A DNA stretch of 64,000 nt, taken from Bacteroidia bacterium. Lineage in GTDB: Bacteria; Bacteroidota; Bacteroidia; M30B66. The translations under genes were made by a program, and so were the position numbers. How positions within the stretch are numbered: the stretch's first letter is position 1; each line of letters starts with the position of its first letter. Below the pieces are notes generated by a model. The model ran no database searches, was not told the origin of the DNA, and saw nothing but the letters and a program-made list of their open reading frames with translations. Shown in pieces: positions 4,091-48,888 of the stretch. The stretch lies in contig OZ257142.1 of assembly GCA_965279035.1 (NCBI GenBank), positions 2,848,001 through 2,912,000 on the forward strand, given 5' to 3'.

Positions 4091-4359
4091 TGTGGCTTCA
4101 AAAACTTTCATGAATTCAAACAATTTCAATAAAGAAATAAATGCGAGAAACTAAATACTTGATACATAGAAATTAATTTATCCAAATAAATTCAACGATT
4201 TTATGTTGATTTAAACAAATAGCAATAGCATATTCTTTAAATACAATACTCGAATTTGTTGTTTTAAAATGGCCTCCATTTTTCAAAAATATACAGATTA
4301 TATTGAACATTTATTTTATAGTATATTCGCTTTTTATTTGAATAATACATCTTCCCAAC

Positions 4360-5202
4360 ATGAAAAAATTGCTTCCAGCTTTTGCTGCATTTATCATTCT
4401 GTTCAATCTTCCTATTCACGCACAATCAACCAATCCTGCCCCCTATTGTGATGCATCGTTTGATGACATGGATGGAACTTTTAATGTAGCAGATCAAATA
4501 AAAAGCGTTTCGTTTGGCACTTTAAGTAATACAAGCAATGCGCAATATGCTTTTCCACATTATGTATTTTACAATAATTTGTCTGTTCCAAATTTAACAA
4601 TTGGAGCTGCCTATTCGTTTAGCGCAACATTCGAAGTGCATGGTGGTGCAGGTTTTGGCATTTGGATAGACTATAATCATAATAATGTCTTTGAAGTAAC
4701 TGAGAAAGTTGCTGGTTCAATATTCAATGCGTGGATGGAAATTTCAGATAACACGATGATAAATGAAAGCATTACGATTTCTCCTATAGCAATGGCAGGA
4801 CAAACACGCATGCGCGTTAGAATTGTTGAAGATGATATGTATACTGGAGCAAATGGAGCAGCAATTTCGGCATGTAATGCAAGTGCAACTGCAGAAGACA
4901 TTATGGATTGGGGAGAAACGGAAGATTATATAGTGAATATTATTTCTTCGGTAGGAATTCCAACTGTTGAAATTCAAAATTCCGAATTGGTTTTTCCAAA
5001 TCCAGCAATATCCTTCCTTAACATCGCTTCAAAAAATTCAACTAACTATCGAATAGTTAATTTAACAGGAAGTCTTATTCAAAGTGGAATAGTCAATTCG
5101 TTTAAACAAATCAATATCGAAACACTTGCGCATGGTGTTTATTTTATTCAATTGTTTGAAAATGATAAAACGATTGCTGTAAAGCGCTTTGTTAAAGCAT
5201 AA
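4360..5202 (+). CDS. GEVED-domain T9SS cargo protein
   Basis: WIDYNHNNVF, TRMRVR and GETEDY motifs; FPNPA...GVYF CTD; signal peptide. Confidence 0.85.
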   Translation: MKKLLPAFAAFIILFNLPIHAQSTNPAPYCDASFDDMDGTFNVADQIKSVSFGTLSNTSNAQYAFPHYVFYNNLSVPNLTIGAAYSFSATFEVHGGAGFGIWIDYNHNNVFEVTEKVAGSIFNAWMEISDNTMINESITISPIAMAGQTRMRVRIVEDDMYTGANGAAISACNASATAEDIMDWGETEDYIVNIISSVGIPTVEIQNSELVFPNPAISFLNIASKNSTNYRIVNLTGSLIQSGIVNSFKQINIETLAHGVYFIQLFENDKTIAVKRFVKA

Positions 5203-5262: not shown

Positions 5263-6090
5263 ATGCGAATAATAAGCTGTTTATTTATTTGCACATGTAT
5301 TTTAATATTGAATATACATGCACAAAATTCAAATTCGATGGTAGATCTTCAACCTATGAACACACCTCAAGTTAAAATGAAAGTGGAAGTTTGGAGCGAT
5401 ATTATGTGTCCATTCTGCTACATTGGAAAACGTCATTACGAAGCTGCTTTAAAGCAATTTGCTGACAGTAATTCAATTCAAATTGAATGGAAAAGTTTTC
5501 AATTGGATCCAACAATTCCTCAAAATCCAGAAAATAAAAACAACGTTTATAAATACCTAGCCGAGCGCAAAGGAATGAGCGAAGAACAATCGCGCAAAAT
5601 GCACGATAATGTGGTTGCAATGGCGAAACAAGCTGGATTGAATTATAATTTCGATCAAGCAGTAATTGCGAATTCGTTTGATGCTCATAAAATGATTCAA
5701 CTAGCCAAAACAAAAGGCTTAGGTGATGAAGCTGAAGAACGCTTATTTCGAGCTTATTTTATAGAAGGAAAGGATTTCGCTGATCATACAACATTAATTC
5801 AACTAGGAAAAGAGATTGGGTTAAATGTGGATGAAATTGCAGCTGCTTTAACAAGTGAAGCATTCTCAGCTAAAGTAAAAGACGATATTGAAGAAGCTTC
5901 CCAATTAGGAATTCAAGGTGTTCCATTTTTCGTATTTAATAGAAAATACGCTATCAGTGGTGCGCAACCTGTAGAAGCATTTTTACAGACACTTCAAAAA
6001 TCATTTTCCGAATGGAGATTATCCAATCCTGCTCATTCATTCGAAATTCAAGAAGGCCCCGTTTGTAATCCCGATGGAAAATGTGATTGA
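5263..6090 (+). CDS. DsbA/FrnE-family oxidoreductase
   Basis: EVWSDIMCPFCYIGKR, GVPFFVF and SGAQP motifs; C-terminal CxxxxxC. Alternative start at 5377. Confidence 0.9.
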   Translation: MRIISCLFICTCILILNIHAQNSNSMVDLQPMNTPQVKMKVEVWSDIMCPFCYIGKRHYEAALKQFADSNSIQIEWKSFQLDPTIPQNPENKNNVYKYLAERKGMSEEQSRKMHDNVVAMAKQAGLNYNFDQAVIANSFDAHKMIQLAKTKGLGDEAEERLFRAYFIEGKDFADHTTLIQLGKEIGLNVDEIAAALTSEAFSAKVKDDIEEASQLGIQGVPFFVFNRKYAISGAQPVEAFLQTLQKSFSEWRLSNPAHSFEIQEGPVCNPDGKCD

Positions 6091-6101
6091 TTGTTTATGA
6101 A

Positions 6102-8537
6102 TTAATGAATCACTTGAAAAACCTTTCCTTCGATGTGTCTTCCGTCCAAGTTCTGAATATTCAGAATATACGTTCCATTATTTAATTTCGAAACATCCAA
6201 AGAAAATTCAGCATTGGAGTTCAAATTTGCTTGTAGGCAAAGTCTTCCATCTACTGAATAAATCGAATAAATCAATTTTTCATTTTGTTTATTGTCGATG
6301 GAAATTTTCAGTAATTGATTGGATGGATTTGGGTAGATTTTAATAGAAGCTGAATTCCCTTTTTCGGGGTTAATGTTAGCGAGAATATTTCCATTAGCAA
6401 ATGCATAATCACCTTTTCGTAATTGAGAGATTTTCATGGAACCAATGCCATTGGTAATGGATCCTGCATTTAATGTAAAGTCGGTATACACTTTCCATTG
6501 TGCTGAAGCATTTTCTCGATAGATAAGAACAGCTTGGGCTTCGGTATTATCAAAAAGATCATTATCTAATGATTCACTTGTATTTCCAACATAATTTAAT
6601 TGTGCATGCATTTCGGTTGTAGCCGGCCAAATTCCATCAACATGCCAGTAATGATTAGCAGAAAATTGATAAATATCTTCTGAACGTAAACTCGAATCGG
6701 GAGCTGCCCAAATATGATCAATGCGAACTAATGTTGAATCTGTAAGCGTATCTAAATACAAACGCATTTCAGAATAAGGTAATATTCCATTTAAAATGCT
6801 TTCATCGGGAACAAACGTATTTTCATAATCTGTGCGAGCCTGATTCAATCGTGTATGACGATTTAAAATCACCATTTTAGGTTCAAATGATGAAGTAATA
6901 TTTACATTAGAATATTGACCGTTGGCAGTAATTCTAACATCTTGACTTTGTCGATTTGCGCCAATCAGAGTTAAATCCAATGGAACATCACCATAAAAAC
7001 TTGGACATTTTCTCAATTTCTGTTGAATGTGAATCGTGGAATTCCAATTCGCCCCAGATTGTGTTGAGGCAAATGAATCAACAACAAATACAGAAAATCC
7101 CGGTTTGTAAACTTGATCTTCAAAAAAATCGTGTAAATCAAAACCGCTAGCTGCTTCTAAATAATCACGTAACTGAAATGGAGTGATGGTTTCATAAGGA
7201 TGAGCAGCTTGAACTGCCGACATAGCTTGACGAAATAAATCATCACCCAAATACCCACGTAAATTATGCATCACAGAAGCTCCTTTGTAATATGTGTGAT
7301 CGCCGTATATATTATCGTCAGGCATTGGTGAAAGGGCAAAATATCCATTATCTGTGATGTGAGCTGTTTTTAAAACATATTCATGATTATCCTTCACCTC
7401 GTTTATAAATGCATCATGTCCATCAACTTCTTCTACGGTTAGATGTGCGCTATATTCTGCTGGTCCTTCTTTCAACCACATATCATTGTGATTGTATGGA
7501 GCGATCCAATTCCCCCACCAATAATGACCTAATTCATGTGCGAAAAGATTCCGATTTTCTAATTCGGCTTGTCCCATCATAAATTGAGGATAAGCCACAT
7601 TTCCCGTTATTTCTAAGGCACCATCGGTTGTTAGTGCATAACCTACTCCAGGCCATCCCGTTGGACCGTACCAATTTTCACAGGCATTGATGGCATTTCC
7701 TAGATTTAAAAATTTAGTACGCATTGCACTTGTATCGGCCGGTTTTGCTGTGAGTTTAACGGGAACTGGAGCATAATTCCCCTGATGTACGTATGTTAAA
7801 TCACGATAATCTGATGCAGCAAATGCAGAAAGATGCGTAGGCAAAGGTTGATTAAAGGAATAGCTGCGAATAACAGTATCACCACCAACATTGGTTTCTC
7901 CTTCGAATGTGCCTTGACAATGTGCTTTAAATGCGCCAGAACTCTTTACATGATACCGATACGTGGCACGTTCAACAAAAGAATCAAAACAAGGATACCA
8001 TACTTTTCCAAAATTGGGAGGAATGGTCGATAAGCCTATCCCTAAATTGTAGATATAACCGGATTCAAAATAAAATCCACCCCAAACTGGATCACGATAG
8101 GGATGACCATGATAATATAACGTTAACGTTGTTGTATCATTTAGTGAAAGTGTATTTGCTAAATGAATAGTTACAAATTGACTATCAGTTTCAAATGGTA
8201 ATAGATTGTTTTGATTCTTTACGGAATCAACGGTTAAACGGACTAAATCGAAACGAATGCTTTGTTGAGCATTCATTTTAGGTACAAATTGAATTTGAGT
8301 TTCTGCTTTGATTGTTTGTCCTGCATAATCTGTAATATCGATGGATATATCATAATGCAAAATATCGAAGGTATCACTACGCAGAATGCTTTCGTTTAGT
8401 GAACGACTATCAACCTGATTGGGGATTAGCGTTTGTCCTCCTAGTTTTCGCCAATGTTGACATCCATAAGGATGAGGCTGAGAAAATGAGAATGAAAATG
8501 TACAAACGAAACCAATTATAAATAGGAATTGTCGCAT
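6102..8537 (-). CDS. M1-family aminopeptidase with T9SS CTD
   Basis: HELGH...WLKEG zinc motif, YYKGA, GAMEN-variant GALEITGN, CTD IYPNPS. Confidence 0.88.
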   Translation of the reverse strand: MRQFLFIIGFVCTFSFSFSQPHPYGCQHWRKLGGQTLIPNQVDSRSLNESILRSDTFDILHYDISIDITDYAGQTIKAETQIQFVPKMNAQQSIRFDLVRLTVDSVKNQNNLLPFETDSQFVTIHLANTLSLNDTTTLTLYYHGHPYRDPVWGGFYFESGYIYNLGIGLSTIPPNFGKVWYPCFDSFVERATYRYHVKSSGAFKAHCQGTFEGETNVGGDTVIRSYSFNQPLPTHLSAFAASDYRDLTYVHQGNYAPVPVKLTAKPADTSAMRTKFLNLGNAINACENWYGPTGWPGVGYALTTDGALEITGNVAYPQFMMGQAELENRNLFAHELGHYWWGNWIAPYNHNDMWLKEGPAEYSAHLTVEEVDGHDAFINEVKDNHEYVLKTAHITDNGYFALSPMPDDNIYGDHTYYKGASVMHNLRGYLGDDLFRQAMSAVQAAHPYETITPFQLRDYLEAASGFDLHDFFEDQVYKPGFSVFVVDSFASTQSGANWNSTIHIQQKLRKCPSFYGDVPLDLTLIGANRQSQDVRITANGQYSNVNITSSFEPKMVILNRHTRLNQARTDYENTFVPDESILNGILPYSEMRLYLDTLTDSTLVRIDHIWAAPDSSLRSEDIYQFSANHYWHVDGIWPATTEMHAQLNYVGNTSESLDNDLFDNTEAQAVLIYRENASAQWKVYTDFTLNAGSITNGIGSMKISQLRKGDYAFANGNILANINPEKGNSASIKIYPNPSNQLLKISIDNKQNEKLIYSIYSVDGRLCLQANLNSNAEFSLDVSKLNNGTYILNIQNLDGRHIEGKVFQVIH

Positions 8538-8632
8538 AGTAAAAACGTGAACGACGAATTTACCTGAAATTTGAAATAAATCAATGTGAAATAATTGTCT
8601 TTCACATTCGATATAACAATAAATGATTATAA

Positions 8633-9021
8633 ACCCGTTGTGCGGTTAAAAATTAGAATTATTCGTCAAAACTATTTATCGCTTACCCAAATAATCAATA
8701 CTTATGTAATGCCTTTAGATTAAATTATTTAAATTAAAATTAGGTTTAGAAACGGATCAGTGTGGAGGCTATGTCTGGGCGGCGAGGGTGTGTTTCGACA
8801 TAGATGAGAAAAAAGCTTATCCGAGCAAAATGGTCGAAAAAAGGCCTTGAGCGTAAGCAGCATCGTCCAGACTTGACCTTCTTTGATTACTTTCTTGTGT
8901 CAAGACAAGAAAGTAATACGTCGTAGACAAACATGAATGATATAGTGACAAGAAGCATTAACAGTCTTATTTCATTGATTGATATAAAAAAAATAAATTG
9001 ATAATTCAACCGCACATCGGT
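8633..9021. mobile_element. MITE-like non-autonomous element, copy 1 (389 bp)
   Basis: Imperfect terminal inverted repeats ACCCGTTGTGCGGTT / AACCGCACATCGGT, flanked by direct repeat TGATTATAA (8624-8632 and 9022-9030). No ORF. Homologous to 38494-39135. Confidence 0.7.
8772..8940. ncRNA. Putative structured RNA/ssDNA core of the MITE-like element, copy 1
   Basis: Stems GTCTGGGCGG/TCGTCCAGAC and TTTCGAC/GTCGAAA, plus a 13-bp hairpin at 8886-8917. Compensatory changes relative to copy 2. Confidence 0.6.
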
Positions 9022-9043
9022 TGATTATAATGTTCTCAAATAA

Positions 9044-9751
9044 TTAATCAGCATAAAACTTATATCCTATGGTACCAAGAAAACAAACATTTTTATAACG
9101 CGGTGTTGGAGCATTATCCATTGTTGTATTTCTGAAAAAATCCCAGCTAGCACGCGCACTAAGAAACATATGCTTTAAGTTAATATCGGCTCCACAAATA
9201 AATCCAACATTATTCCTTCTTAAGGATTCATTTCTAAATACTTGCTCTTGTGTATAGCTCGAAAAGGAGGTTGTAAATTCATTGCGTTGTTTAAGCAAAT
9301 AGGAATATTGAAAACCAGCTAATAATGAAATAAATTCGGATGGTTTTACAACTACCTGTAAAGGAATATCCATAATCAATGAAGTTCTAGTAAAATTATA
9401 ATTACTAGCGAGCAACAATCCCGAACCTTTAAAACCCTTTTGAGACACTGCAATTTCGGGTTGAAAACCAATGTATTTAGTTACAGGGAAATGAATTAAA
9501 GCACCAGCAGTTAAAGCATATTTAGTTTCAGCTTGAAACTGATCACCTTGTCCTGCAAATACATCCGAAATGCACATACCTGCTTTCACTCCAAATTGCA
9601 ATTTTTCTCGATTATCTGTTGGTAAATTGTTCGTTCCGGTAGTTGAGCTAGTATTGGTATTCACTGTTATATTCGTCTTAGTTGAATCCTGTGCATTCAA
9701 ATGAAAGGAAACAACTAAAAGAAAAAATGAAAAGAGAAGATTAAGTTTCAT
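9044..9751 (-). CDS. Outer-membrane beta-barrel (porin/PorT-like) protein
   Basis: Signal peptide; FGVKAG, FQPEI.VSQKG and terminal IGYKF. Confidence 0.8.
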   Translation of the reverse strand: MKLNLLFSFFLLVVSFHLNAQDSTKTNITVNTNTSSTTGTNNLPTDNREKLQFGVKAGMCISDVFAGQGDQFQAETKYALTAGALIHFPVTKYIGFQPEIAVSQKGFKGSGLLLASNYNFTRTSLIMDIPLQVVVKPSEFISLLAGFQYSYLLKQRNEFTTSFSSYTQEQVFRNESLRRNNVGFICGADINLKHMFLSARASWDFFRNTTMDNAPTPRYKNVCFLGTIGYKFYAD

Positions 9752-9893: not shown

Positions 9894-11564
9894 TTATTTT
9901 CTTCTAGATTGTATATTCTTACCTAAGTTTATTTTCTTTTCACCAAGAAGCGCTTGAGATATTCCACTAATAATTGCTTGAGATGCATAATGTAAAAAAT
10001 AGCGTGAAGTGTCTCTTGTTGCACTTATATTACTTGTTCTTAAAAATCCTGATTGATCAGGATTTCGAACCTGAACAACCAGTTTATTTAGGAAGAATGA
10101 TGATAATTTCTTATGCATGATTGATTCTTTCTTGTGCCCTTTTAAATTATCTACGTTTAAATTATGATAGTTGAATGTCATTTTCCCACGAGCTACTTTC
10201 TCTCCTGCATGAAAATGGAAAGAAACACCATCGATATTACCTTGAGTAAATTGAATATTTAATGTATTTCGAACTAGCCCATTAAAGGCTGAAAAAGGCA
10301 TATTTCCTAAAGATCCATTGCAATCAAATGTTTTATTATTCTTTCCATAAGGGAAGATAAATTCCATGTTCAATTTTCCCGTATTCATAATTTGTGCATC
10401 CATATTTAATCGAATGAGTACTAATGAATTATCATTTGGATAATCAGATTTAAAATCATGAATGGCTATATTCATTTTATTCAAAAAGAGTTCACCCGGC
10501 TTTGATTGTTTAGGTGCAATCACACGAAAATGTGCAGATGCATTTTTAACAAATAGTGATTCGATTGATAATTGAATTGGAATATTTCGAATAATCTCCT
10601 GGAGTGTTAAACATGTTTTTGGAATAATTTTAATGTTATTATCTCTGTATGCTTCAATTATACCATCATTCAAATGAAGCTCCTTTAAATGAAGTTTTGC
10701 ATTTTCATTCATCAAATGCAATGGATTAAATCCAGAACAAATTATTTTGGGAATATGAATGGACGTGTAGGTTGATTGCCGGCCAGCTTTATCTCCAAAT
10801 TCTTCTGGTTCATAGATTGGATCTAAATTTAGAGAGTCGATGATAAGTAATGAGTCTAAATAATTAAAAGAAATTGAATTGCTTTTTAACGTATATAAAT
10901 CACTTTTAATTGGAAATTGAAAATGATTCAATTGAACATTAAATTTTGAAAATCCAAATTCAGGACTTAATAATGTATCATGAATCTTATAGTTAATATT
11001 CTGGATATCCAATTTAAATTGAGCTTCTGAAAGAGATTGATTCAGTTCGGTTCTAGCACCAATAATCTGCATTAGAATATTTTCAACATAAATCGAATTG
11101 ATAGAAATAGACTGAATTTGAGAATCAGAATTCTGTTTATTTTTCTCAAATGAATGATTAATTGGTTTCGAATTTATTTGTTTAGGAGATATGAATATTT
11201 GAGGATTCTTAAATAGTATTTTATCTATTCGAAGAGATTTGCTAGACCAAAAAGTAAATAAATTCAAATCAGTAAAACGAATACGATCTGCTTTAAAATC
11301 AATGGAATTAAATGAATGATCATCCTTATTAGTAGGCTTAAATGAAATCTTATTAAGATTAATTGATGATGATAAATACTGTATATCAATATCTTCAATA
11401 TCTAATTTATAATTTCCTTTGCTACGTTGATCAACTAATTCAACTAACTCATTTATGATTCTTTTTTTAATATATGAATGAATAAAAAATAAACTACCTA
11501 TAAATAAAATACAAAATAGGACTAACAAAAAAATAATTCGATGATATTTAGTTTTAGATTTCAT
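9894..11564 (-). CDS. AsmA/DUF748-like envelope protein
   Basis: N-terminal transmembrane helix followed by long beta-rich repeats of the type seen in Bacteroidota AsmA-like proteins. Confidence 0.55.
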   Translation of the reverse strand: MKSKTKYHRIIFLLVLFCILFIGSLFFIHSYIKKRIINELVELVDQRSKGNYKLDIEDIDIQYLSSSINLNKISFKPTNKDDHSFNSIDFKADRIRFTDLNLFTFWSSKSLRIDKILFKNPQIFISPKQINSKPINHSFEKNKQNSDSQIQSISINSIYVENILMQIIGARTELNQSLSEAQFKLDIQNINYKIHDTLLSPEFGFSKFNVQLNHFQFPIKSDLYTLKSNSISFNYLDSLLIIDSLNLDPIYEPEEFGDKAGRQSTYTSIHIPKIICSGFNPLHLMNENAKLHLKELHLNDGIIEAYRDNNIKIIPKTCLTLQEIIRNIPIQLSIESLFVKNASAHFRVIAPKQSKPGELFLNKMNIAIHDFKSDYPNDNSLVLIRLNMDAQIMNTGKLNMEFIFPYGKNNKTFDCNGSLGNMPFSAFNGLVRNTLNIQFTQGNIDGVSFHFHAGEKVARGKMTFNYHNLNVDNLKGHKKESIMHKKLSSFFLNKLVVQVRNPDQSGFLRTSNISATRDTSRYFLHYASQAIISGISQALLGEKKINLGKNIQSRRK

Positions 11565-11802
11565 TCATGTTAAAATAAACAGAATTACCGACAATATAAT
11601 TATAAGAAATTTAATATTCCTTATATAATTCACATTTCTTAAAACACAATCAAGATTTGATATAAATATAAGGTAGAAATAAATTATACGTGAAAAAAAC
11701 CCGATTAAAAACAGGAAAATTCACGGTCATTTCAAAGCTATTCACACTAGCTTGGAATTAAAATAAAGCTATTTTTATTTTAAAATAATCATTTAACAAT
11801 CT

Positions 11803-12840
11803 ATGAAAACAATCCGTATTCTTTCAATCGACGGTGGTGGCCTTCGGGGCGTAGTTCCACTTACCATTTTATCTGATATTCAACGAAGAATCCCCAATGC
11901 TCCAGAGCTTTGGAAATGTTTCGACCTTATTGCAGGAACTTCAACAGGAGGTTTAATAACTTCTGCCATGACCTTAGGTGATCGATCTACTGGAAAAGCC
12001 AAGTACACATTAAACGATATACTCAATGTATACATTAATAGAGGACATGAAATTTTTCCACATCATAATGTAATTGGGAATTTATTCCATAAAATAAAAG
12101 ATATCGCAAGACCAACATTTGATGATGATGGAATTGCAAAAGTATTTCGCGATGTAGTTGGAAATAGTAAAATTTCGGATTGCTTAACGAATATTTTGGT
12201 TAGTACCTATGATTTGAATAATAATATGCCTTTATTTTTTAAGTCGATCGACCATTTAGAAAACCCTGCATTGGATGCGGAATTATATAATATATGCCGT
12301 GCCACTTCGGCTGGTCCAACTTATTTACCAACGTATCGTTTTAATTATCCTAAAAATCCAGACAAAGAACTTCCTCATCGAAATTGTATCGATGGTGGTG
12401 TGTATGTGAATAATCCTTCCATGGCAGCACTATCCGAATTCATTAAGAATTTCAAACATTACGATCCAAGCATTGAGAAAAAGGAAGATATACATTATGA
12501 TAATATTTTTGTCCTTTCTATAGGTACAGGAACGTATTCAAGCTCTATTAAAGACGATGAAAGTGCCAATAAAGGAGAAATTTATTGGGCCAAAAATATC
12601 AGTGATATTATGATGCGCGGTGTGAATAAAACAACACACTATGAAATGTCGGAAATGATGGAAGAAGGAAATTATTTACGACTGACAATCAATATCGACA
12701 ATGAAGAACATGCTGATATGAGTAATTCAAGCCAAGAAACAATCGATTATTTAATCAATGCAACACAAACACAAGTGCTTCAGGATACAAAACTTATGAA
12801 TGATTTGGAAGCATTTTTAACGAAAAGTGGTTTAAAATAA
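11803..12840 (+). CDS. Patatin-like phospholipase
   Basis: ILSIDGGGLRG, GTSTG nucleophile, DGGV and LSIGTG motifs. Confidence 0.92.
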   Translation: MKTIRILSIDGGGLRGVVPLTILSDIQRRIPNAPELWKCFDLIAGTSTGGLITSAMTLGDRSTGKAKYTLNDILNVYINRGHEIFPHHNVIGNLFHKIKDIARPTFDDDGIAKVFRDVVGNSKISDCLTNILVSTYDLNNNMPLFFKSIDHLENPALDAELYNICRATSAGPTYLPTYRFNYPKNPDKELPHRNCIDGGVYVNNPSMAALSEFIKNFKHYDPSIEKKEDIHYDNIFVLSIGTGTYSSSIKDDESANKGEIYWAKNISDIMMRGVNKTTHYEMSEMMEEGNYLRLTINIDNEEHADMSNSSQETIDYLINATQTQVLQDTKLMNDLEAFLTKSGLK

Positions 12841-38196: not shown

Positions 38197-38415
38197 ATGG
38201 AAGAAATTATTACCAAAGACAGCAACGGAAACATTTTGAAAGACGGTGATTCTGTAAAATTAATCAAAGACCTCAAAGTGAAAGGTTCTTCCATCACTTT
38301 GAAGCGTGGAACCGTTGTTAAAAACATCAAATTGACCGATGATCCTGATGAAGTGGATTGTCGCGTTGAAAAAATGGGAATTGTACTTCGTACAGAATTT
38401 CTAGCCAAAGCTTAA
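38197..38415 (+). CDS. PhnA/YjdM C-terminal-domain protein (no zinc ribbon)
   Basis: KDSNGNILKDGDSVKLIKDLKVKGSS..LKRGT.VKNI.L. Confidence 0.88.
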   Translation: MEEIITKDSNGNILKDGDSVKLIKDLKVKGSSITLKRGTVVKNIKLTDDPDEVDCRVEKMGIVLRTEFLAKA

Positions 38416-38493
38416 AAAAGCTAATAATCCTATTATTGACATCAACAGTAGTTGTTGAGTAGAATTTTCATGCTTAATAATGAACCTTAATCT

Positions 38494-39135
38494 ACCTGGC
38501 TGTGGTTCAAAAATTAATATTAATACCTTAAAAATAATATTTATCCTTCAACAATGATTATAGTTTACTCTTGGTTGAAAACATTGTTTTGCCTAAATAT
38601 TTATTTTTAATTAGTAAAATTAAGTTTAGAATCGGATCATAGCGATAGCTATTTCTGGGCAGTGACTTCCCCCTCCCTCCTCCCGTCACATAGTGATCCC
38701 TACGGGTAAGGGACCACTATGTGGCAGGAGAGGTGAGATTATTACAGAACTAGAGTTGGCTTTGTCTAGGTGGGGAGGTAACGTTTCGAATTCTAGAAAA
38801 TTCAAATTCTAATACAGTTGAATGATTTACAGTAAACTGAATCTAGCTTAAATTGTAGGAAGTAAACATGAATCTGGTGCGCTGGCCTGTCTGGGCGGCG
38901 AGGCAGCGTTTCGCCATTCCTGAGAAAAATATAACTCCCAGCACAATGGGCGAAAAATGGCATTGCGCGCTGAAGCATCGTCCAGACTTGAACTTCTTTG
39001 ATTACTTTCTTGTTTCAAGACAAGAAAGTAATACGTCGTAGACAAACATGAATGAATAATTGATATTATGCTAATAAAGCATTAATTAAATGAATGAACT
39101 GAAAAAACACTTTGATTACTAAACCACAAAAAAGT
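38494..39135. mobile_element. MITE-like element, copy 2 (about 640 bp, internally expanded, eroded ends)
   Basis: End cores TGTGGTT (38501) / AACCACA (39122-39128). Leader AAAATTAAGTTTAGAATCGGATCA and the ~170-nt core are homologous to copy 1. No clear target-site duplication. Confidence 0.6.
38888..39055. ncRNA. Putative structured core, copy 2
   Basis: Same stems as 8772-8940 with compensatory substitutions; 13-bp hairpin at 39001-39032. Confidence 0.6.
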
Positions 39136-39160
39136 TTTTATATAATAATAATTCTGCCAA

Positions 39161-40394: not shown

Positions 40395-43300
40395 ATGATG
40401 AAACAGTTCAACCTTCTCTGTTTTGCTTTCCTTTTAGGAGCTGCTCCGCTCGCTCAAGCGCAGCACTACGTAATTCCTCAAGGTCTTAAGTCGGATCAAT
40501 ATGTTTCCGGGCAAGTCCTTTTTAAACTTCGAGAACAATACCGTTCTTTAGCGAATGAACATGGAATTAACTCCGAGAAAATTGCTCATGTAATTAATCA
40601 ACTTGGAGGAAGTTCGCTTCATAAAAACTTTCCTGCCTCAAAACAACCGGGTAAGAAATTCAACGAAAATGGAGAACGTTTAGCAGATCTTTCTCTCATC
40701 TATGAGTTAAGATATACAAGCAATACTTCGATTTATCAAGCTGCTGCATTACTTCAAAAAACGGGATTAGTCGAATATGTTCAACCACGTTTTACAGCAC
40801 AACCCATGGCTGTTCCTAACGATCCGCTCGTTGCTCAACAATATCATCATGCCTTAATCAAAACATTCGAAGCCTGGGATATAGAACAAGGTGATTCTAC
40901 AATTCTTATTGGTATTACCGATGGAGGAATTCAGTTTGATCATGAAGATTTGGGGAATTGGCAATACAATTATGCTGAAATAGTAAATGGAATTGATGAT
41001 GACGGTAATGGTTACATTGATGACATAGCCGGTTGGAATACAGCCAACAATACAAACGATCCTACAGCTACACTTTCTCCTCACGGAATGTTTACAAGTG
41101 GAATGAGCAATGCTACTGCGAACAATGGTTTAGGACTTGCCGGAAATGCCAACCAATGCCGTTTTGTTCCTATCCGAATTGACGATGCCACTGGTTTTAA
41201 TTATGGTTATGAAGGAATTGTTTATGCCGCTGCCCGAGGTTGTCAAATAATTAATGCCAGTTGGGGTGGTACATTTCCAAATCCCGTAAATGCAGAAGCC
41301 ATTCTTTATGCAACGGTCAATCAAGGTGTATTAATTGTGGCTGCTTGCGGAAATTCAGGAATAGATGAAAAATACTATCCTGCATCATATGAAAATGTGA
41401 TGAGCGTTGGCGCAACAGGATCTACCGACCTAAAATGGAGCGGATCTACGTTTAATACTTCGGTTGATATTGTTGCTCCCGGTGAACTTGTTCAATCTTG
41501 CTGGCCTTTTAATGGTTACGATATTAGCAGCGGAACTTCATTTTCATCGCCTTTAGTTGCCGGTGCTGCGGCCATTGTGAAAAGTCATTTTCCTAGCTAT
41601 ACTGCTCAACAAGTTGCCGAACGTTTGCGCGTAACTGCCGACAATTCAATCTATTCACTTCCGGGAAATTCTGCTTGGAATGGATTAATGGGGTCGGGTC
41701 GATTGAATATGCTTCGTGCATTGACCGATCCAGCTACACCATCAGTTCATTTCACCAATCCAAACTATTTAGATGCTGGTGGTGATGCAATCTTACAAGC
41801 CAATGAAGATGTTACAATTACTGGTATTTATAAAAACTTCCTTTCTCCAACTACAAATCTCAATGCTACTATTTCGTGTAGTTCTCCCTATGTGACAATA
41901 ATCAATGGAAGTAATCATCCAGGTGCTATTGGAACATTAGCAACTGTGGCAAATAGTAGCAATCCTTTTAGTTTTCATATTGCAGCTAATGCACCGAATA
42001 ATCTCGATTTAATCTTTCGTATCGACTACACGGATGCAGGCTATACAGCATTTGAATACATCGAAGTTCGTGTCAATCTTGATTATTTGAATTTAGATGT
42101 GAATCATCTTCATACTACGATAACAAGTAGAGGAAGTATTGGCTACAACGCCGATTATGCAAGCGAAGGTTTAGGAGTAACACTCGATAGCAGTGCAAGT
42201 ATTATATATGCTTCTGGATTTATGTTGGGAAGCAGTGCATCCAAAGTGGCCGATAATGTTTATGCTTCTTCCATTCCAGGATATGACAATGATTTCTTTC
42301 GTCAAAATGGAGCCCGATACATTCAAAATACTACCAGTCAACAACAAATCCGTTCGACTTTTTATACCGATAGCGCCAGTGTAGGAAGATTGGTAGTAAA
42401 TCAAATGGCTGCAGCCCTTTCAGCATCGCCCGACGATCATGCAGTAATGATGATGTACACCATTAAAAACACAGGAAATTCAGCTGCGAATGGTTTAAGT
42501 GCTGGAATATTTACTGATTGGGATATTCAAAATGCTGGCAATAACCAAGGTGCTTGGGATGCAAGTAGGAATTTGAGTTATGCATTCGAACCCGGAGGAA
42601 TGTATGCAGGAGTTAAACTGTTAGAAGGTCCAGCATCACATGCCTATTGTTTTAATAGTGATGGTTCATCAGGTAGTATTAATTTATATGATGGATTTTC
42701 AGGGACAGAAAAATTTGCGACACTATCTGGTTCTCAAACTCGAAATTCTTCCCCAGCGGGTGATATTGCCAATCTGATTGGAACCAGCTCATTTAATTTA
42801 GCTGCAGGAGATTCTATTACGATTAAGTATGTCATGCTGATTGCTGAAGATTTGTCTCAATTGCAAGCAGCTGCCGATCGAGCACAGAGCCTTTACAATT
42901 ACCTTCAATTGCAAGTATCCGTTGAAGCTGTAGGAGAAAGTTGTTCCCAAAATGATGGCTATTTGAATCTAACTGCAGAAGCAATACCGGGAACTAGTGT
43001 TGAATTAAGCACTTCGGATGGTGTTTCAATAACAACATCAAGCGATTTAAGTAATTTTGAATATAGCGGGTTACCAGCAGGAGATTATCTACTCACCTAC
43101 TCTTTTGCAGATGGTTCAACGTATGATGAATCATTTACTATTGAAGCTTCAACTCCTGTAACTCTTACAACAAGTGCTTCTGCGGAAATTTTAGCATTAC
43201 CAAATTCCATTGTCGATTTCACCGCTTCAGCTAGTGGTGGTGCTCAATTCCTTTGGGATTTTAATGATGACTCCCCTACTTCAACAGAACAAAATCCTAC

Positions 43301-43655
43301 TCATGATTTCTTTGTTGCTGGAACATATCTCGTTACCTGTGTTGCTTTTAATGGATCATGTTCTGATACATCAACTATAGAAATTCTAATCGGCGATCCT
43401 CTTCGTATTGAAAATATTCATGGATTAACTTCCATTTTCCCTAATCCGGTGCATGATGTTTTAACTATTCAATTGCCTGAATTAAATGGAATAGTGAACA
43501 TTCAAATTTATTCAGTAAACGGACAAATCATTTCGCAACAAATAGCGAATCAAGGTTCTAATAAACTGGATGTTTCACAATTAAGCAATGGAATTTATCT
43601 ATTGAAAATATGCTCTGAAAAAGGCATAGAAACACATCGAATTGTTGTGAATTAA
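40395..43655 (+). CDS. S8 serine peptidase with PKD domain and T9SS CTD
   Basis: ITDGG, DDDGNGYIDD, HGMFTSG and GTSFSSP motifs; PKD WDFND...NPTH; FPNPV CTD. The signal peptide fits ATG 40395. Confidence 0.9.
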   Translation: MMKQFNLLCFAFLLGAAPLAQAQHYVIPQGLKSDQYVSGQVLFKLREQYRSLANEHGINSEKIAHVINQLGGSSLHKNFPASKQPGKKFNENGERLADLSLIYELRYTSNTSIYQAAALLQKTGLVEYVQPRFTAQPMAVPNDPLVAQQYHHALIKTFEAWDIEQGDSTILIGITDGGIQFDHEDLGNWQYNYAEIVNGIDDDGNGYIDDIAGWNTANNTNDPTATLSPHGMFTSGMSNATANNGLGLAGNANQCRFVPIRIDDATGFNYGYEGIVYAAARGCQIINASWGGTFPNPVNAEAILYATVNQGVLIVAACGNSGIDEKYYPASYENVMSVGATGSTDLKWSGSTFNTSVDIVAPGELVQSCWPFNGYDISSGTSFSSPLVAGAAAIVKSHFPSYTAQQVAERLRVTADNSIYSLPGNSAWNGLMGSGRLNMLRALTDPATPSVHFTNPNYLDAGGDAILQANEDVTITGIYKNFLSPTTNLNATISCSSPYVTIINGSNHPGAIGTLATVANSSNPFSFHIAANAPNNLDLIFRIDYTDAGYTAFEYIEVRVNLDYLNLDVNHLHTTITSRGSIGYNADYASEGLGVTLDSSASIIYASGFMLGSSASKVADNVYASSIPGYDNDFFRQNGARYIQNTTSQQQIRSTFYTDSASVGRLVVNQMAAALSASPDDHAVMMMYTIKNTGNSAANGLSAGIFTDWDIQNAGNNQGAWDASRNLSYAFEPGGMYAGVKLLEGPASHAYCFNSDGSSGSINLYDGFSGTEKFATLSGSQTRNSSPAGDIANLIGTSSFNLAAGDSITIKYVMLIAEDLSQLQAAADRAQSLYNYLQLQVSVEAVGESCSQNDGYLNLTAEAIPGTSVELSTSDGVSITTSSDLSNFEYSGLPAGDYLLTYSFADGSTYDESFTIEASTPVTLTTSASAEILALPNSIVDFTASASGGAQFLWDFNDDSPTSTEQNPTHDFFVAGTYLVTCVAFNGSCSDTSTIEILIGDPLRIENIHGLTSIFPNPVHDVLTIQLPELNGIVNIQIYSVNGQIISQQIANQGSNKLDVSQLSNGIYLLKICSEKGIETHRIVVN

Positions 43656-43677
43656 TTTGAATTTATTTCATCTATTC

Positions 43678-43713
43678 AAAAAAGCCTCGGATTTAAATTC
43701 GAGGCTTTTTTTT
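43678..43713 (+). terminator. Terminator after the plus-strand S8 gene
   Basis: AAAAAAGCCTCGGATT-TA-AATTCGAGGCTTTTTTTT. Confidence 0.88.
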
Positions 43714-43805
43714 GAGTTAATTTCTGATTCCTTATTATTAAATTCAATCGTAATTCTTTTAAAATTAGAAATCAAAATTCATATTATTTTCAAATTAAAT
43801 CACAT

Positions 43806-43833
43806 AAAAAAACCCCAGAGAATTCTGAGGTTT
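43806..43833 (-). terminator. Terminator after the minus-strand hybrid kinase
   Basis: Minus strand AAACCTCAGA-ATTC-TCTGGGGTTTTTTT. Confidence 0.75.
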
Positions 43834-43853
43834 AAGTTTTATTTAGGGGTGAT

Positions 43854-46064
43854 TTAAAGTGTTGGAAGTTGTATTTTAAAAATCGATCCAAGACCAAGAG
43901 TAGATTCAACTTCAATGGTTCCCTGCAATTTCTGAACAGCGTCTTTCACATTCGAAAGTCCTAGTCCATTGCTATCAGGACGATCACCTAATTTATAATA
44001 CGAATCAAAAATTCGACTATGATGTTCTGTTGAAATTCCAATTCCATTATCCTCCACTTGGATTTCTAACATTAACGGATATTCAATGCAAGCTACTTTA
44101 ACATAACATTCTGGTTTCGTTGGATCAGAATATTTGATTGCATTGGAAATTAAGTTACTTAATATAACACGTAAACGGGCTGGATCAGAACTCAACTGAA
44201 CTTCCTCTTCTATTTCATTTTGAAATAATATAGATTCAGCTCCAGGTGCAAATCGCAATTCATCAATCACATCTTGAACTTGCTGTTTTAAATTCACCTT
44301 GATCGTTACCACTTGTCCTCGGCTTCGAAGAGAAGCAATAATATCATTTGTAAATGTTTCGAGTTTTTTCAAACTCTTCTCCATCATATTGAGGTAATTG
44401 ACAAATTCAGCTGGATTTTTTTCATCACGTGCCAAGGTAATCAAGCCACTCACCGAATTCATAGGTGCTTTCAAATCGTGAGAAAGGATTTTTACCAATC
44501 GATCTAATTCCTTATTGTTATTTTCGATTTCAATAAACTGACCTCGGAATTTCTCATCGGCCATTTTACGTTCAGTAATGTTCATCATACTCACGCATGC
44601 ACCCAAAACATTAAGCTTTTCATCCGAAACTGGACTTAAACTTATGCTGTACCAATGCACCGATGTTGGAGAAAAGCGATAGGCCATTTCCCACTGCACC
44701 TGCTTATCGAGCATGGCTTCACCAAACTTTTTGCTAAAAACTTCGCGAATATCAGCTAGTAAATAATCCGTAAAAGGACTGTTCTCGCGAAGCTCCTCGC
44801 CCATCAATTGGATGTTTTGACGATTCGCAATCACATTATACGCCTTGATCCGCTGGTTATTATCTAGCAAAACAATGCTTTGATTGACATTATTGAAAAT
44901 GGAATTCAACATCGCCACCGTTTCTTTCTGCTTCTCGCTAAAGTAGCGGCTTTGAGTGATGTCTTTACAGACTCGAATTATTCCAATGATTTGACCATTT
45001 TCATCATATAAATGAGAAGCCTTGATGTCGGTCCAAACGATTTTATCATCTTTTGTAATTAAACGAGTTTCCCATTGAGAGATTCGTCCAGCAATTATTT
45101 CATGTTGTTCAACACGAACATTGAGTTTATCAACTTCAGCATACAATTGATCGAAATTTCGTCCAACAATCTCTTCTCTCGAATACCCAAAACTTAATTC
45201 CGCACCTTCGTTCCAGTAGGTAATAATTCCTTTTCGATCTGTAACAAATATGGTATCACGTACATTTTTAAGAACTCCCGCCTGAAAGAGCATTTCTTCC
45301 TGAACATGTCTTTTTTCGGTGATGTCATCTGCCAAAATCAAATAACAATCATGTCCATCAAGTTCGGTTTCTTGAACCCGACATTCAACAGTGATGATGG
45401 TCCCGTCTTTTTTTACATGATGAAATATTTCGGCACTACTATAATCTCCAAAACGCTCACGGATCATACGTTTAAGCGATTCAACTTCTTCGATTGGATG
45501 CAGATCGGTAACCTGCATATGTAAAAACTCTTCTTCCGAATAACCAAAATGATCAATTGCCGATTGGTTTACCTTTAATATACGTAATCCGTCTTTTTCA
45601 CGGATATACATTGGAATTGGATTATTTTCAAAAAGCAGTTTGTAAGAGGCTTGGCTTTGACGGATAAGTTCCATACTGGATTTCCGTTCTATACTATATA
45701 AGATGGATTTAGCTAGTAGTTTTTCTTCAAATTCCCCTTTCACCAAATAATCTTGAGCACCATTTTTTACTGCTTCGTGAGCAAATCGAGTATCGTTTAA
45801 TCCTGATAGAATTAGAATTGGAATGGAAGGATTAACGGCATTGAGTCGTTGAAAAGAATCAAAACCATAAGAATCAGGTAATGAAAGATCGAGCAGTATT
45901 ACATCTGGATCAGAAGCTTCAACCGAACTGATCGCATCCTGCAATGAAGTAACATGAATGATGTCTTTGGAGAAATCACGACTTTCATTCAACATCTGCT
46001 GAATAAGCAGAAAATCTCCTGTATTGTCTTCTACAATTAAAATCTGAAGTCGCTGTGTTTTCAT
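43854..46064 (-). CDS. Hybrid kinase REC-PAS-PAS-PAS-HisKA-HATPase
   Basis: VEDN..D, LLDLSLPD and GAQDYLVKG; PAS/PAC repeats; SHDLKAP, NLISNAIKY, DNGIG and GLGL. Confidence 0.92.
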   Translation of the reverse strand: MKTQRLQILIVEDNTGDFLLIQQMLNESRDFSKDIIHVTSLQDAISSVEASDPDVILLDLSLPDSYGFDSFQRLNAVNPSIPILILSGLNDTRFAHEAVKNGAQDYLVKGEFEEKLLAKSILYSIERKSSMELIRQSQASYKLLFENNPIPMYIREKDGLRILKVNQSAIDHFGYSEEEFLHMQVTDLHPIEEVESLKRMIRERFGDYSSAEIFHHVKKDGTIITVECRVQETELDGHDCYLILADDITEKRHVQEEMLFQAGVLKNVRDTIFVTDRKGIITYWNEGAELSFGYSREEIVGRNFDQLYAEVDKLNVRVEQHEIIAGRISQWETRLITKDDKIVWTDIKASHLYDENGQIIGIIRVCKDITQSRYFSEKQKETVAMLNSIFNNVNQSIVLLDNNQRIKAYNVIANRQNIQLMGEELRENSPFTDYLLADIREVFSKKFGEAMLDKQVQWEMAYRFSPTSVHWYSISLSPVSDEKLNVLGACVSMMNITERKMADEKFRGQFIEIENNNKELDRLVKILSHDLKAPMNSVSGLITLARDEKNPAEFVNYLNMMEKSLKKLETFTNDIIASLRSRGQVVTIKVNLKQQVQDVIDELRFAPGAESILFQNEIEEEVQLSSDPARLRVILSNLISNAIKYSDPTKPECYVKVACIEYPLMLEIQVEDNGIGISTEHHSRIFDSYYKLGDRPDSNGLGLSNVKDAVQKLQGTIEVESTLGLGSIFKIQLPTL

Positions 46065-46362
46065 ATCATCCCGACTTTCCCAAACATAAAATCCTATTCA
46101 TATTCCCAAACATGAAGCTTGAAAAAATGAAAATGGATTTCGAGATTTTATTCTCCTTATGAATGTATCGATTTCTCATTCAATAAATAATAGTACTACG
46201 CCTAGAATCAGTATAAGGTTACATTGAATAAGACAGCCTAAATATAAGCTAATTAAAAATGAAAGAAAGTTCTCATTGATTGGCTAAAATAATTTTATAG
46301 TTGGAATTCTAAAAATATTTGTATTTTCATCGAATAATCATTTTCTGAAAGGAGGCAGACAA

Positions 46363-48888
46363 ATGATCACAAAGGCGATCAGCATTCATCAACAGTTGTT
46401 TGATCAGGGATATGCTCCCCGATGTTTAGTTTTGCTTGATGGTAGCTTTGTTCTTACCAATCAAGCATTTCGGAAACTATTCAAATTGAGTGGTTCTCAT
46501 CTTGAAATTAAAGACTTAAATCTATTTGACGTCATAGCAGAAGCTACAGGGGTTTATCGAGAAAAAATAGATAAAGAGCAATTTTTTCTTAGTGAAAGTA
46601 TAGAACCTATCGAAGGCAAGATTATTTTAATTCAAGATGATGGTAATAAAATAAAACTAGATTATATTCAAAGTAGAGTTGAATTGGACGATTTTCCAAT
46701 GCTCTCATTTGAATGGCAAGATGTCACCGAAAAAGTAGAATCTCGAAAGACATTAAGAAGTACTTATGAGCGACTTCAATTGGCTGCTTCCATCAGTAAT
46801 TTAGGAATTTGGGAATATGAATTTGATAATACTGAATGGTATTTAAATGAATGGATGTGCGCATTATTTAATATTCCAGCACATGGAAAAACAAACATAA
46901 CAGAAGATTTTCTTAAGAAAATTCATCCCTCTGATATCGAACGTTTAACTAAACATTGGAAAGATGTAAAAGAGAATGGAGGAAGCCTTGACATTGAATT
47001 TAGAGTAATCTTATCCGATTCAACAATCCATTATTTACATTGTATGGGACGTTGTCTATATGATACACGTCGTCAACCATGGAAATTTGTGGGCACGATG
47101 GCCGATATTACTGAAAGTAAAATAGAATCGGAGCAACTCATTTTAGATAGAAATCGGATGAGTTCATTAATCGATGCACAAAATTCTCTTCTTATACGAT
47201 TGAATAAAACAGGTGTTGTTACGTATAGCAACATTCGATTTAGAAATTATTTTGGTTTAGAAAATATGTGTTCTGATAGCATTTGGTTATCACCCTTTCT
47301 ACATTCCGATCAACGATTATTATTACAAAATGCATTAGATAAGTGCTTTCAAACACCCGGAAAATCTGAAATTCTACTCTTAAAACTAAAAAACTCCAAA
47401 GGAGAAAATGTTATCCAAGAATGGGAACTCGTAGGTATTGAAAATACAAAGGGGCAAACAGATGAAGTTCAGGGAATAGGACGAGATGTTACAGAGCAAA
47501 TGAATTTGAATGCTCGTATTCTTCAAACAAAAAGTAATCTTGAGTCACTTATTAATAATTTCAACAAAGTAAGTATCTGGTCGATAGATTTGAATTACAA
47601 TTTAACTACCTGTAATAATAATTTTAAAGAAGAACATTTCCAATATTATGGGAATAAACTTGATATTGGTGATAATATCATTGATGCTTTGAGTTCTATG
47701 CCTGAAGTGGCAAACTATTGGAAAGCCCAATATGAATTAGCGTTCAAAGGAAATCAATTCGAGTTGGAATTGGAGGTTGCTGGTAATTATTTTGAGGTGA
47801 GTTTTAACCCCATTTATTTATCGACTGAAATTATCGGTGTTGCCATTTATGGAATGGATATCACTGATTCGAAAAAAGCGGAACAAGAACTTAAATTAAG
47901 TCAAGAACGACTTCATTTTGCTATCGAAGGAAATCAATACGGAGTTTGGGATTATGATGTTGTAAATGACCATTTGTACTTGTCGGATTCGTGTCGAGCA
48001 ATGCTTGGATTAGATGAAAATGATGTAAAGCAAAATTTACTGGCATGGGCAGAAATAATTCATCCAGATGATTTAGATAAGGCAGTAAAAGTTCGAAGAG
48101 ATCTGCTATCAGGAGAAATAGAAGGCTTCCGAAGTGAAATTCGAATGAAACATAAAAATGGTGGGTATAAATGGATCATGGACAAAGGCAAAACCTATGA
48201 AAGAGATTCTGAAGGAAAGCCAACTCGCGTCATTGGTTTGTTTCTAGATATTTCTAAAATAAAGACCGATGAATCTAAACTAAAAGAGTATTTACAACGA
48301 CTTGAGAAATTTGCATATATCACATCTCATAATTTAAGATTACCTGTTGCCAATATTATTGGATTAGTTAATATGATTGATGAAAGCTCATATAAAACAA
48401 AAGAAGATGAAACAGTTATTCGTAAAATAAGAACTTCTGCTCAGCAAATTGATGAAGTAATTAAAGAAATGAATGATGCAATTTCATTTACTAATCAATC
48501 TGTTAGCAAGCCTCAATTAACTTCGTTGAAAAAAATATGGTTTATTGATGATGATGATATTAATAATTTATTGAGTGAGCGATTAATTGGTAAACACTTC
48601 CCTGATACTAAATGCCGTACATTTATTGATGCCGAAGAAGCCTTGAATGAACTTCAAAAAAACAGTACGTTGAAACCAGATGCCATCTTTCTTGATATCA
48701 ATATGCCGAGAATGAATGGATGGGAGTTTTTAGAAGAATTTGAAAAATTAAAACTCCCAATAAACGTGTATATGCTCACTTCTTCTATTGATCCAAGAGA
48801 TCAACAAAAAGCGCATACCTATTCTTTTGTAAAAGATTTTATTTCGAAACCACTGCGCGAAGAACGGCTCCGATTAATTGTAGAATAA
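46363..48888 (+). CDS. Multi-PAS protein with HisKA (DHp) helix pair fused directly to REC, no HATPase
   Basis: PAS/PAC repeats (IHPSD, IHPDD), SHNLRLP, then after about 60 aa WFIDDD...FLDINMP...SKP. No N, G1 or G2 boxes. Confidence 0.85.
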   Translation: MITKAISIHQQLFDQGYAPRCLVLLDGSFVLTNQAFRKLFKLSGSHLEIKDLNLFDVIAEATGVYREKIDKEQFFLSESIEPIEGKIILIQDDGNKIKLDYIQSRVELDDFPMLSFEWQDVTEKVESRKTLRSTYERLQLAASISNLGIWEYEFDNTEWYLNEWMCALFNIPAHGKTNITEDFLKKIHPSDIERLTKHWKDVKENGGSLDIEFRVILSDSTIHYLHCMGRCLYDTRRQPWKFVGTMADITESKIESEQLILDRNRMSSLIDAQNSLLIRLNKTGVVTYSNIRFRNYFGLENMCSDSIWLSPFLHSDQRLLLQNALDKCFQTPGKSEILLLKLKNSKGENVIQEWELVGIENTKGQTDEVQGIGRDVTEQMNLNARILQTKSNLESLINNFNKVSIWSIDLNYNLTTCNNNFKEEHFQYYGNKLDIGDNIIDALSSMPEVANYWKAQYELAFKGNQFELELEVAGNYFEVSFNPIYLSTEIIGVAIYGMDITDSKKAEQELKLSQERLHFAIEGNQYGVWDYDVVNDHLYLSDSCRAMLGLDENDVKQNLLAWAEIIHPDDLDKAVKVRRDLLSGEIEGFRSEIRMKHKNGGYKWIMDKGKTYERDSEGKPTRVIGLFLDISKIKTDESKLKEYLQRLEKFAYITSHNLRLPVANIIGLVNMIDESSYKTKEDETVIRKIRTSAQQIDEVIKEMNDAISFTNQSVSKPQLTSLKKIWFIDDDDINNLLSERLIGKHFPDTKCRTFIDAEEALNELQKNSTLKPDAIFLDINMPRMNGWEFLEEFEKLKLPINVYMLTSSIDPRDQQKAHTYSFVKDFISKPLREERLRLIVE

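Follow-up and report, generated by a model that had tools for sequence, protein, structure and literature searches.

The interiors of MITEs are usually regarded as leftovers of the parent insertion sequence (IS). REP/REPIN elements, i.e., short palindromic intergenic repeats that lie at gene 3' ends and occur as doublets and tandems, are copied by a separate route. In prokaryotes, MITEs are defined as elements that are shorter than about 500 bp and have 4-30 bp terminal inverted repeats, and their target-site duplications are said to fade as they age (PMC10969869). IS982-derived MITEs are already known in Bacteroidota, as are MITEs that carry a repeat cargo. For example, MITECca01 of Cardinium is derived from IS982, is mostly intergenic and lacks a transposase (PMC9769881), and BrickBuilt of Porphyromonas gingivalis is an intergenic Bacteroidota MITE in which leader and tail arms surround an internal repeat module (PMC4596501). 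The ends of IS982 elements start with 5'-AC, and their duplications of 2-10 bp are often absent (PMC7335449). The extended TwoAYGGAY elements are multi-copy intergenic sequences in which a long basal stem is combined with a 3' pseudoknot and a terminal hairpin; they often form divergent doublets about 249 bp apart and are reportedly concentrated in Pseudomonadota (bioRxiv 10.64898/2026.09.22.753630).

The element reported here occupies positions 8633-9022 of a 64,000-nucleotide stretch of DNA from a Bacteroidia bacterium (hereafter the window), and it is probably best explained as a two-layer selfish element, namely, an IS982-type MITE shell around a foreign core with its own route of upkeep. 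In this MITE, conservation is concentrated in the interior, which bears no relation to the parent, has its own history, and seems to recur in a second transposon family. If true, this would show how a module of structured RNA or single-stranded DNA can spread through genomes. The defined ends, the known transposase family, and a mutable 5-bp pseudoknot also offer an experimental handle on a widespread class of intergenic repeats.

Compared with the described systems, the element resembles ISRa1 (IS982 family, Riemerella anatipestifer) in its left end, its AC start, its Flavobacteriales host, and duplications that are often absent, but ISRa1 is 980 bp long instead of 390 bp, has a transposase, and differs at end bases 12-13. 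MITECca01 is shorter (about 240 bp) and has an intact parent in the same genome, and the accessible text on it describes no conserved structured cargo (PMC9769881). The cargo of BrickBuilt is a 23-nt minisatellite, as opposed to the rod with pseudoknot found here (PMC4596501). Unlike REP/REPIN, the element is longer and pseudoknotted, is surrounded by DDE-type ends, and has no RAYT-type gene beside any copy. The nearest description is that of extended TwoAYGGAY, which shares the basal stem and the 3' pseudoknot, and whose doublets are like those of the Comamonas, Variovorax, and Ralstonia relatives discussed below; however, paired hairpins with AYGGAY loops are absent from the consensus fold of the element, and the accessible text describes no transposon ends for TwoAYGGAY (bioRxiv 10.64898/2026.09.22.753630). 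TwoAYGGAY (RF01731) had no match in the window or in the related loci scanned. The 3' module of the core may nevertheless have been described already in the extended TwoAYGGAY work, the comparison being one of text descriptions only (bioRxiv 10.64898/2026.09.22.753630). No match to the element was seen in the accessible text of PMC1950547, PMC2864571, and bioRxiv 10.1101/2024.01.18.576219, and none of six short motifs turned up when the Weinberg 2010 alignments were searched by word, a weak negative as these alignments are gapped. In the literature outside subscription papers and bioRxiv supplements, there was no account of the element or of a pseudoknotted cargo common to MITEs of different families. 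What is new is the undescribed, exchangeable core, the function of which is inferred only.

When taken with an 8-bp duplication, the element is 390 bp long and its terminal 15-mers, i.e., the left (8633-8647, plus strand) and right (9008-9022, minus strand) terminal inverted repeats, are complementary at 13 of 15 positions, which places it within the prokaryotic size and end range of MITEs. TGATTATAA forms an exact 9-bp direct repeat at 8624-8632 and 9022-9030, and in the 8-bp register the target-site duplication is GATTATAA, exact at 8625-8632 on the left and 9023-9030 on the right. The inverted repeats and the exact direct repeat claimed in a sequence-only reading of this DNA are thus present. 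The 8-bp register is preferred because it is consistent with ISRa1 and with the near-perfect ends (14/15) of another copy, L006; the alternative register, a 9-bp duplication with loss of one base in the right end of the present copy (copy 1), may also apply. Of 20000 random AT-rich flank pairs given equal freedom of offset and length, 0.2% matched or exceeded the duplication score of copy 1, and the chance of such a score in one of six copies is about 1%.

Between the terminal repeats, the plus strand carries an AT-rich left arm (8648-8749; 21% GC), a conserved structured core (8750-8941; 44% GC) that contains a 3' module of hairpin and pseudoknot (8873-8917) supported by fold and covariation, and an AT-rich right arm (8942-9007). 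The arms at 8635-8663 and 8992-9020 form an inverted repeat of 29 nt with 72% complementarity. Covariation of the end cores, proposed from TGCGGTT vs TGTGGTT, comes down to one matched change in six full copies, and the same position is mismatched in two of them. It is unlikely that the terminal repeats serve as an RNA closing stem; by inspection, their mismatches are mostly non-G-U and resemble decay. The absence of an ORF, as stated earlier, holds in that there is no transposase gene, but short frames of 30-87 aa exist. The start positions of the plus-strand frames vary between copies, and a coding role was dropped since these starts are not conserved.

The shell is, with high confidence, an IS982-type MITE. 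The first 11 bases of its left end are identical to the ISRa1 left end as taken from plasmid pCFC2 (12/15 overall), and other IS982 members agree at 10/11 (a Bacteroides element) and 8/11 (IS1187) positions. The duplication of 8 or 9 bp at copy 1 falls within the 2-10 bp seen for IS982 when present. With respect to the logo AC(N)6T(N)5TT, the element has the AC and the T at position 9, and TT at 14-15 instead of 15-16; ISRa1 likewise misses the TT at 15-16. The left arm is about as long as the left non-coding end of IS982 elements (PMC7335449, Table 1). Missing duplications are not unusual for such ends, because exact duplications amount to 0-2 bp in three ISRa1 copies and the Bacteroides relative (7 bp in IS1187). 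Comparison of the arms and core with five IS982 elements gave no convincing similarity (best of 150 comparisons z 3.7, in AT-rich sequence), and their derivation from IS982 sequence was dropped for the five elements compared. Since, in addition, end bases 12-13 differ, the parent would be a relative of ISRa1 and not ISRa1 itself. The window, the six loci L001-L006 described below, and a 395-kb Persicobacter plasmid encode no IS982 transposase. The length of 390 bp and the lack of such a gene rule out an autonomous IS982 member, which would measure about 1 kb and encode a DDE transposase of ~290 aa, and for the same two reasons the element is classed as a derivative of the family, not a member. 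A group II intron, considered as the ends contain GTGCG, was dropped, there being no intron domain match in the Rfam scan.

A single scan of a genome collection with a core-based pattern returned six loci (L001-L006) in three genomes; because the pattern sits in the core, copies with a decayed core and core-less shells are undetectable by it. Five of the six loci, from two Flavobacteriales genomes, comprise four full copies, one truncated by the end of its contig, and one 5' partial copy. Over 382-397 bp, these four further full copies share 82-93% identity with copy 1. With the window included, six full copies in three genomes have common ends and unrelated flanks: homology between copies extends no further than the inverted repeats, and each site has different flanking genes, with the caveat that assembly from metagenomes can place wrong flanks on either side of a repeat. 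The expectation that the copies share ends is borne out in all six, but an exact duplication is found in copy 1 alone; it is near-exact in L001 (10/11, equalled by one of 30 non-cognate flank pairs) and absent in four, among them L006, the copy closest to copy 1. The common IS982-type ends, the unrelated flanks, and a core that is more conserved than its shell agree with the earlier proposal of a non-autonomous element, bounded by terminal inverted repeats, that spreads a conserved folded core. Solo ends of the shell (up to three mismatches) were not found in the window or in L001-L006, and the plasmid and phage collections contained no copy of the 390-bp element. At L004, a 5' partial copy (4322-4573), cut inside the 3' module, is separated by about 50 bp from the 3' end of a fragment (4626-5042) of a gene for a retron-type reverse transcriptase (PADLOC E 2e-38), which is probably a chance neighbour. 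At L006, a C/G-rich palindromic repeat (5930-5970) lies immediately to the right of the element and resembles in character the hairpin inserted in copy 2 of the window and the middle of a Variovorax doublet.

Among five full copies, mean pairwise identity is 91-92% in the core (91% without the search-pattern columns), 67% in the left arm, 81% in the right arm, and 72% in the ends, and variable columns make up 28 of 162 in the core vs 84 of 169 in the arms (Fisher 4e-10). Supported by covariation, the core folds as a single strand, RNA or single-stranded DNA, into a rod and then a pseudoknotted hairpin. The rod consists of helices P1 (8773-8781/8864-8872), P2 (8782-8789/8843-8850), and P3 (8793-8799/8833-8839) and a variable apex. 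It is followed by a 13-bp hairpin (8886-8898/8905-8917), the loop of which (8899-8903) pairs with 8873-8877, directly after P1, to form the 5-bp pseudoknot. Folding z-scores are -4.6 for the plus strand and -1.6 for the minus strand (40 shuffles), and 97.5% of 281 cells are paired across seven core sequences. Double-sided changes occur in 4 of 41 pairs, one of them within the pseudoknot, and none of 500 shuffles reached the covariation score, although relatedness of sequences alone can beat shuffled scores. Because 30 of the 41 pairs are invariant and the seven sequences are related, this covariation is taken as support and not as proof. In 16 modules with six distinct upstream 5-mers, pseudoknot complementarity is 27 vs a permutation mean of 19.7 (reached by 2/720), with just 3/5 positions paired in two of three Ralstonia modules.

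The invariant G-U pairs of the core lie on the plus strand and, like the pseudoknot, would suit a non-coding RNA that is expressed from a promoter remaining in the IS end, is required for spread, and may be catalytic or guide a protein. The position of the core fits such an RNA as well: it begins about 117 bp from the left end, where IS982 genes start at about 90-105 bp (PMC7335449), and the Persicobacter MITE described below has its core in the same position. However, G-T pairs and knots form in single-stranded DNA too, conservation is lowest in the left arm, and no sigma-70-type promoter lies inside the element, in a scan of a kind that does not cover Bacteroidota promoters. Moreover, DDE transposition is not known to require an RNA. 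Rfam gave no match at gathering score for the whole window, chance-level hairpin matches only for both copies at E<10, no covariance-model match of the Rfam 15 ribozymes and riboswitches to the core, and nothing relevant in the related loci scanned. An expressed RNA is, on balance, an unlikely explanation.

Core and arms differ in the relationships that they indicate. In the arms, informative sites group copy 2 with copy 1 (9:0:1), whereas in the cores they group copy 2 with L004b (0:10:0), and a conflict of this kind is also present in two further quartets. It appears that the core was exchanged between copies while the shell differs in history. It is this conflict, together with the contrast in conservation, that sets decay of the shell against upkeep of the core in the two-layer explanation. 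In that explanation, the shell would be a MITE formed from the ends of an ISRa1-like insertion sequence of the IS982 family and mobilised in trans by an IS982-family DDE transposase into AT-rich intergenic DNA, with duplication of about 8 bp. The ends are those of the family, the copies are dispersed, and one of them is flanked by a duplication; the transposase acting in trans and the jump itself are presumed. In place of the transposase gene, a foreign core of ~190 nt would have been captured between the IS ends. After insertion, ends, arms, and duplications would decay, with the core staying intact and being swapped among copies. The core may itself be selfish, a repeat unit from an older and more widespread family, kept and recopied by its own route, e.g., through recognition of its fold by some protein or gene conversion among many copies, and would hitchhike on the transposon ends after landing between them. 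Next to the copies, no protein was seen that might mobilise the core.

Copy 1 is flanked by the minus-strand genes for an M1 peptidase with a type IX secretion tail (6102-8537) and for an outer-membrane beta-barrel protein (9044-9751), the stop of the latter being 21 bp from the element. The gene content of the window includes type IX secretion tails and a SusD-like protein, which is indicative of Bacteroidota. Both copies in the window had been placed just downstream of the 3' end of a minus-strand gene; site by site, copy 1 has a gene 3' end on one flank and the 5' side of the M1 peptidase gene on the other, and the junction of copy 2 is convergent. All seven copies with a readable left flank abut at least one gene 3' end, and four of the six full copies lie between convergent genes, an arrangement found at 10 of the window's 46 gene junctions (p 0.02). 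This excess is compatible with harmless landing sites as well as with a role at 3' ends, in which the core would be retained for the host as an mRNA stabiliser, a nuclease barrier, or a terminator-like insulator between convergent genes, and the MITE would be mere delivery. That the core outlasts the ends is in line with such a role. On the other hand, harmless insertions give the same 3'-end bias, the terminator pattern is absent from 8500-9100, the insertion sites are not common to genomes, and L004a and L005 sit directly behind a pre-existing terminator-like hairpin. Copy 1, moreover, is antisense to both of its neighbours, yet the fold is strand-specific. Retention for the host is regarded as improbable.

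Relatives of the core or of its 3' module are also found outside this shell. A short core relative without these ends is present in L003, from a further Bacteroidota genome (labelled Chitinophaga; model score 45 bits), and the 3' module occurs without these ends in Comamonas (35 bits). In Variovorax, the match of the 3' module to the element was as good in 0/300 shuffles. The Betaproteobacteria Comamonas, Variovorax, and Ralstonia, traced from a plasmid match, contain divergent doublets that end in the same hairpin. The rods do not align to that of the element in either Persicobacter or Variovorax (72 and 180 of 300 shuffles, respectively). A Pseudomonas relative that bridges the 3' module to TwoAYGGAY was not found among the matches listed (60 of 163 and 60 of 177 records). 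The occurrence of the 3' module without the shell bears on whether the element could simply be an old, ordinary MITE whose interior is neutral and foldable, its extra conservation and swapping resulting from the way copies were found and from routine repeat recombination. MITE transcripts commonly fold (PMC10969869), the search pattern selected intact cores, and compensatory changes are few, all of which would be compatible with neutrality. Against this stand not only the shell-free modules but also the conservation contrast, which persists without the pattern columns, and the pseudoknot, which changes on both sides across phyla, and a neutral interior is considered very unlikely.

The shell-free relative in L003 (9961-10088) lies just upstream of coaX on the same strand and adjoins a tRNA gene, at which a serine-recombinase element (10212-11872) is integrated. 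The Burkholderiales doublets, e.g., L007 2480-3070, L010 1940-2660, L023 1150-1650, and L025 1110-1660, are divergent copies of a ~170-nt structured repeat that has no Rfam match where scanned; related matches occur in 163-177 plasmid records, in at least 21 places in one of them.

In Persicobacter JZB09, a similar core is present at 33 places on five plasmids. Six copies with both ends (L009 1191-1607, L011 1375-1779, L012 1362-1779, L013 1361-1779, L014 1374-1778, and L019 10121-10537) are MITEs of 405-419 bp with CAGGG-type ends that are unrelated to the IS982-type shell. Their right ends start with CAGGG in 3/6 copies and their left ends mostly with CACGG, and their 10-bp duplications agree at 10, 10, 10, 9, 8, and 7 of 10 positions. 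ISAs1 elements are characterised by 14-22-bp ends that start with CAGGG and by a 10-bp duplication (PMC11946415), and the Persicobacter MITE is of ISAs1 type in both its ends and its 10-bp duplication. Its layout is that of the IS982-type element, with a core that is rod-like and has a pseudoknotted hairpin at its end, and its conservation profile, 74/92/83%, is alike; five of the six copies were chosen as the best match of their record, a choice that favours intact cores. No autonomous partner of this shell was found in the one of five plasmids that was fully read, and the phage collection held no copy of the Persicobacter MITE. The link to the core of the element (6/300 shuffles; 15.5 bits, E 0.09) concerns the 3' module and the layout only, and weakly suggests that the two cores are related. 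Tentatively, and with more doubt than assurance, the core could be a member of an undescribed, cross-phylum family of pseudoknot-ended repeats with its own copying route, captured independently by IS982 and ISAs1 ends and swapping shells. If so, the core would be a hyperparasite or a functional RNA for which MITEs are the vehicles.

The Persicobacter core also occurs without a shell. At L018 (22400-23650 and 5600-6400), it is part of a 393-bp tandem with short repeated palindromic words, in which one unit lacks the rod, apparently via recombination of 8-bp direct repeats at the rod ends. At L008, a shell-free core (1330-1550) lies directly upstream of a tyrosine integrase gene (1614-2759). The Persicobacter plasmid at L018 furthermore contains group II intron pieces (41702-47636), namely, duplicated D1-D4 segments and one catalytic domain.

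A second copy in the window had been noted previously, and this is confirmed for the core and left arm of copy 2 (38493-39136, plus strand), but it has no duplication and its ends (38493-38507 and 39122-39136) are badly decayed. Its intact core (38872-39060) is 85% identical to that of copy 1 over 169 nt, and its left arm (about 38527-38635) aligns with a score of 94, compared with a maximum of 40 in 500 shuffles; the right arm match is weak (35 vs 22+/-4 in shuffles). About 236 additional bases are found at 38650-38887, including a GC-rich hairpin of 65 nt at 38673-38737 and, at 38763, the decayed start of a core; this extra segment looks like two degenerate rods in tandem before the intact core. 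Copy 2 is inserted between the 3' ends of a YjdM/PhnA-domain gene (38197-38415, plus strand) and a YitT gene (minus strand). The former encodes 72 aa, below the 100-aa ORF cut-off, and since it is located on the plus strand, the site of copy 2 is a convergent junction.
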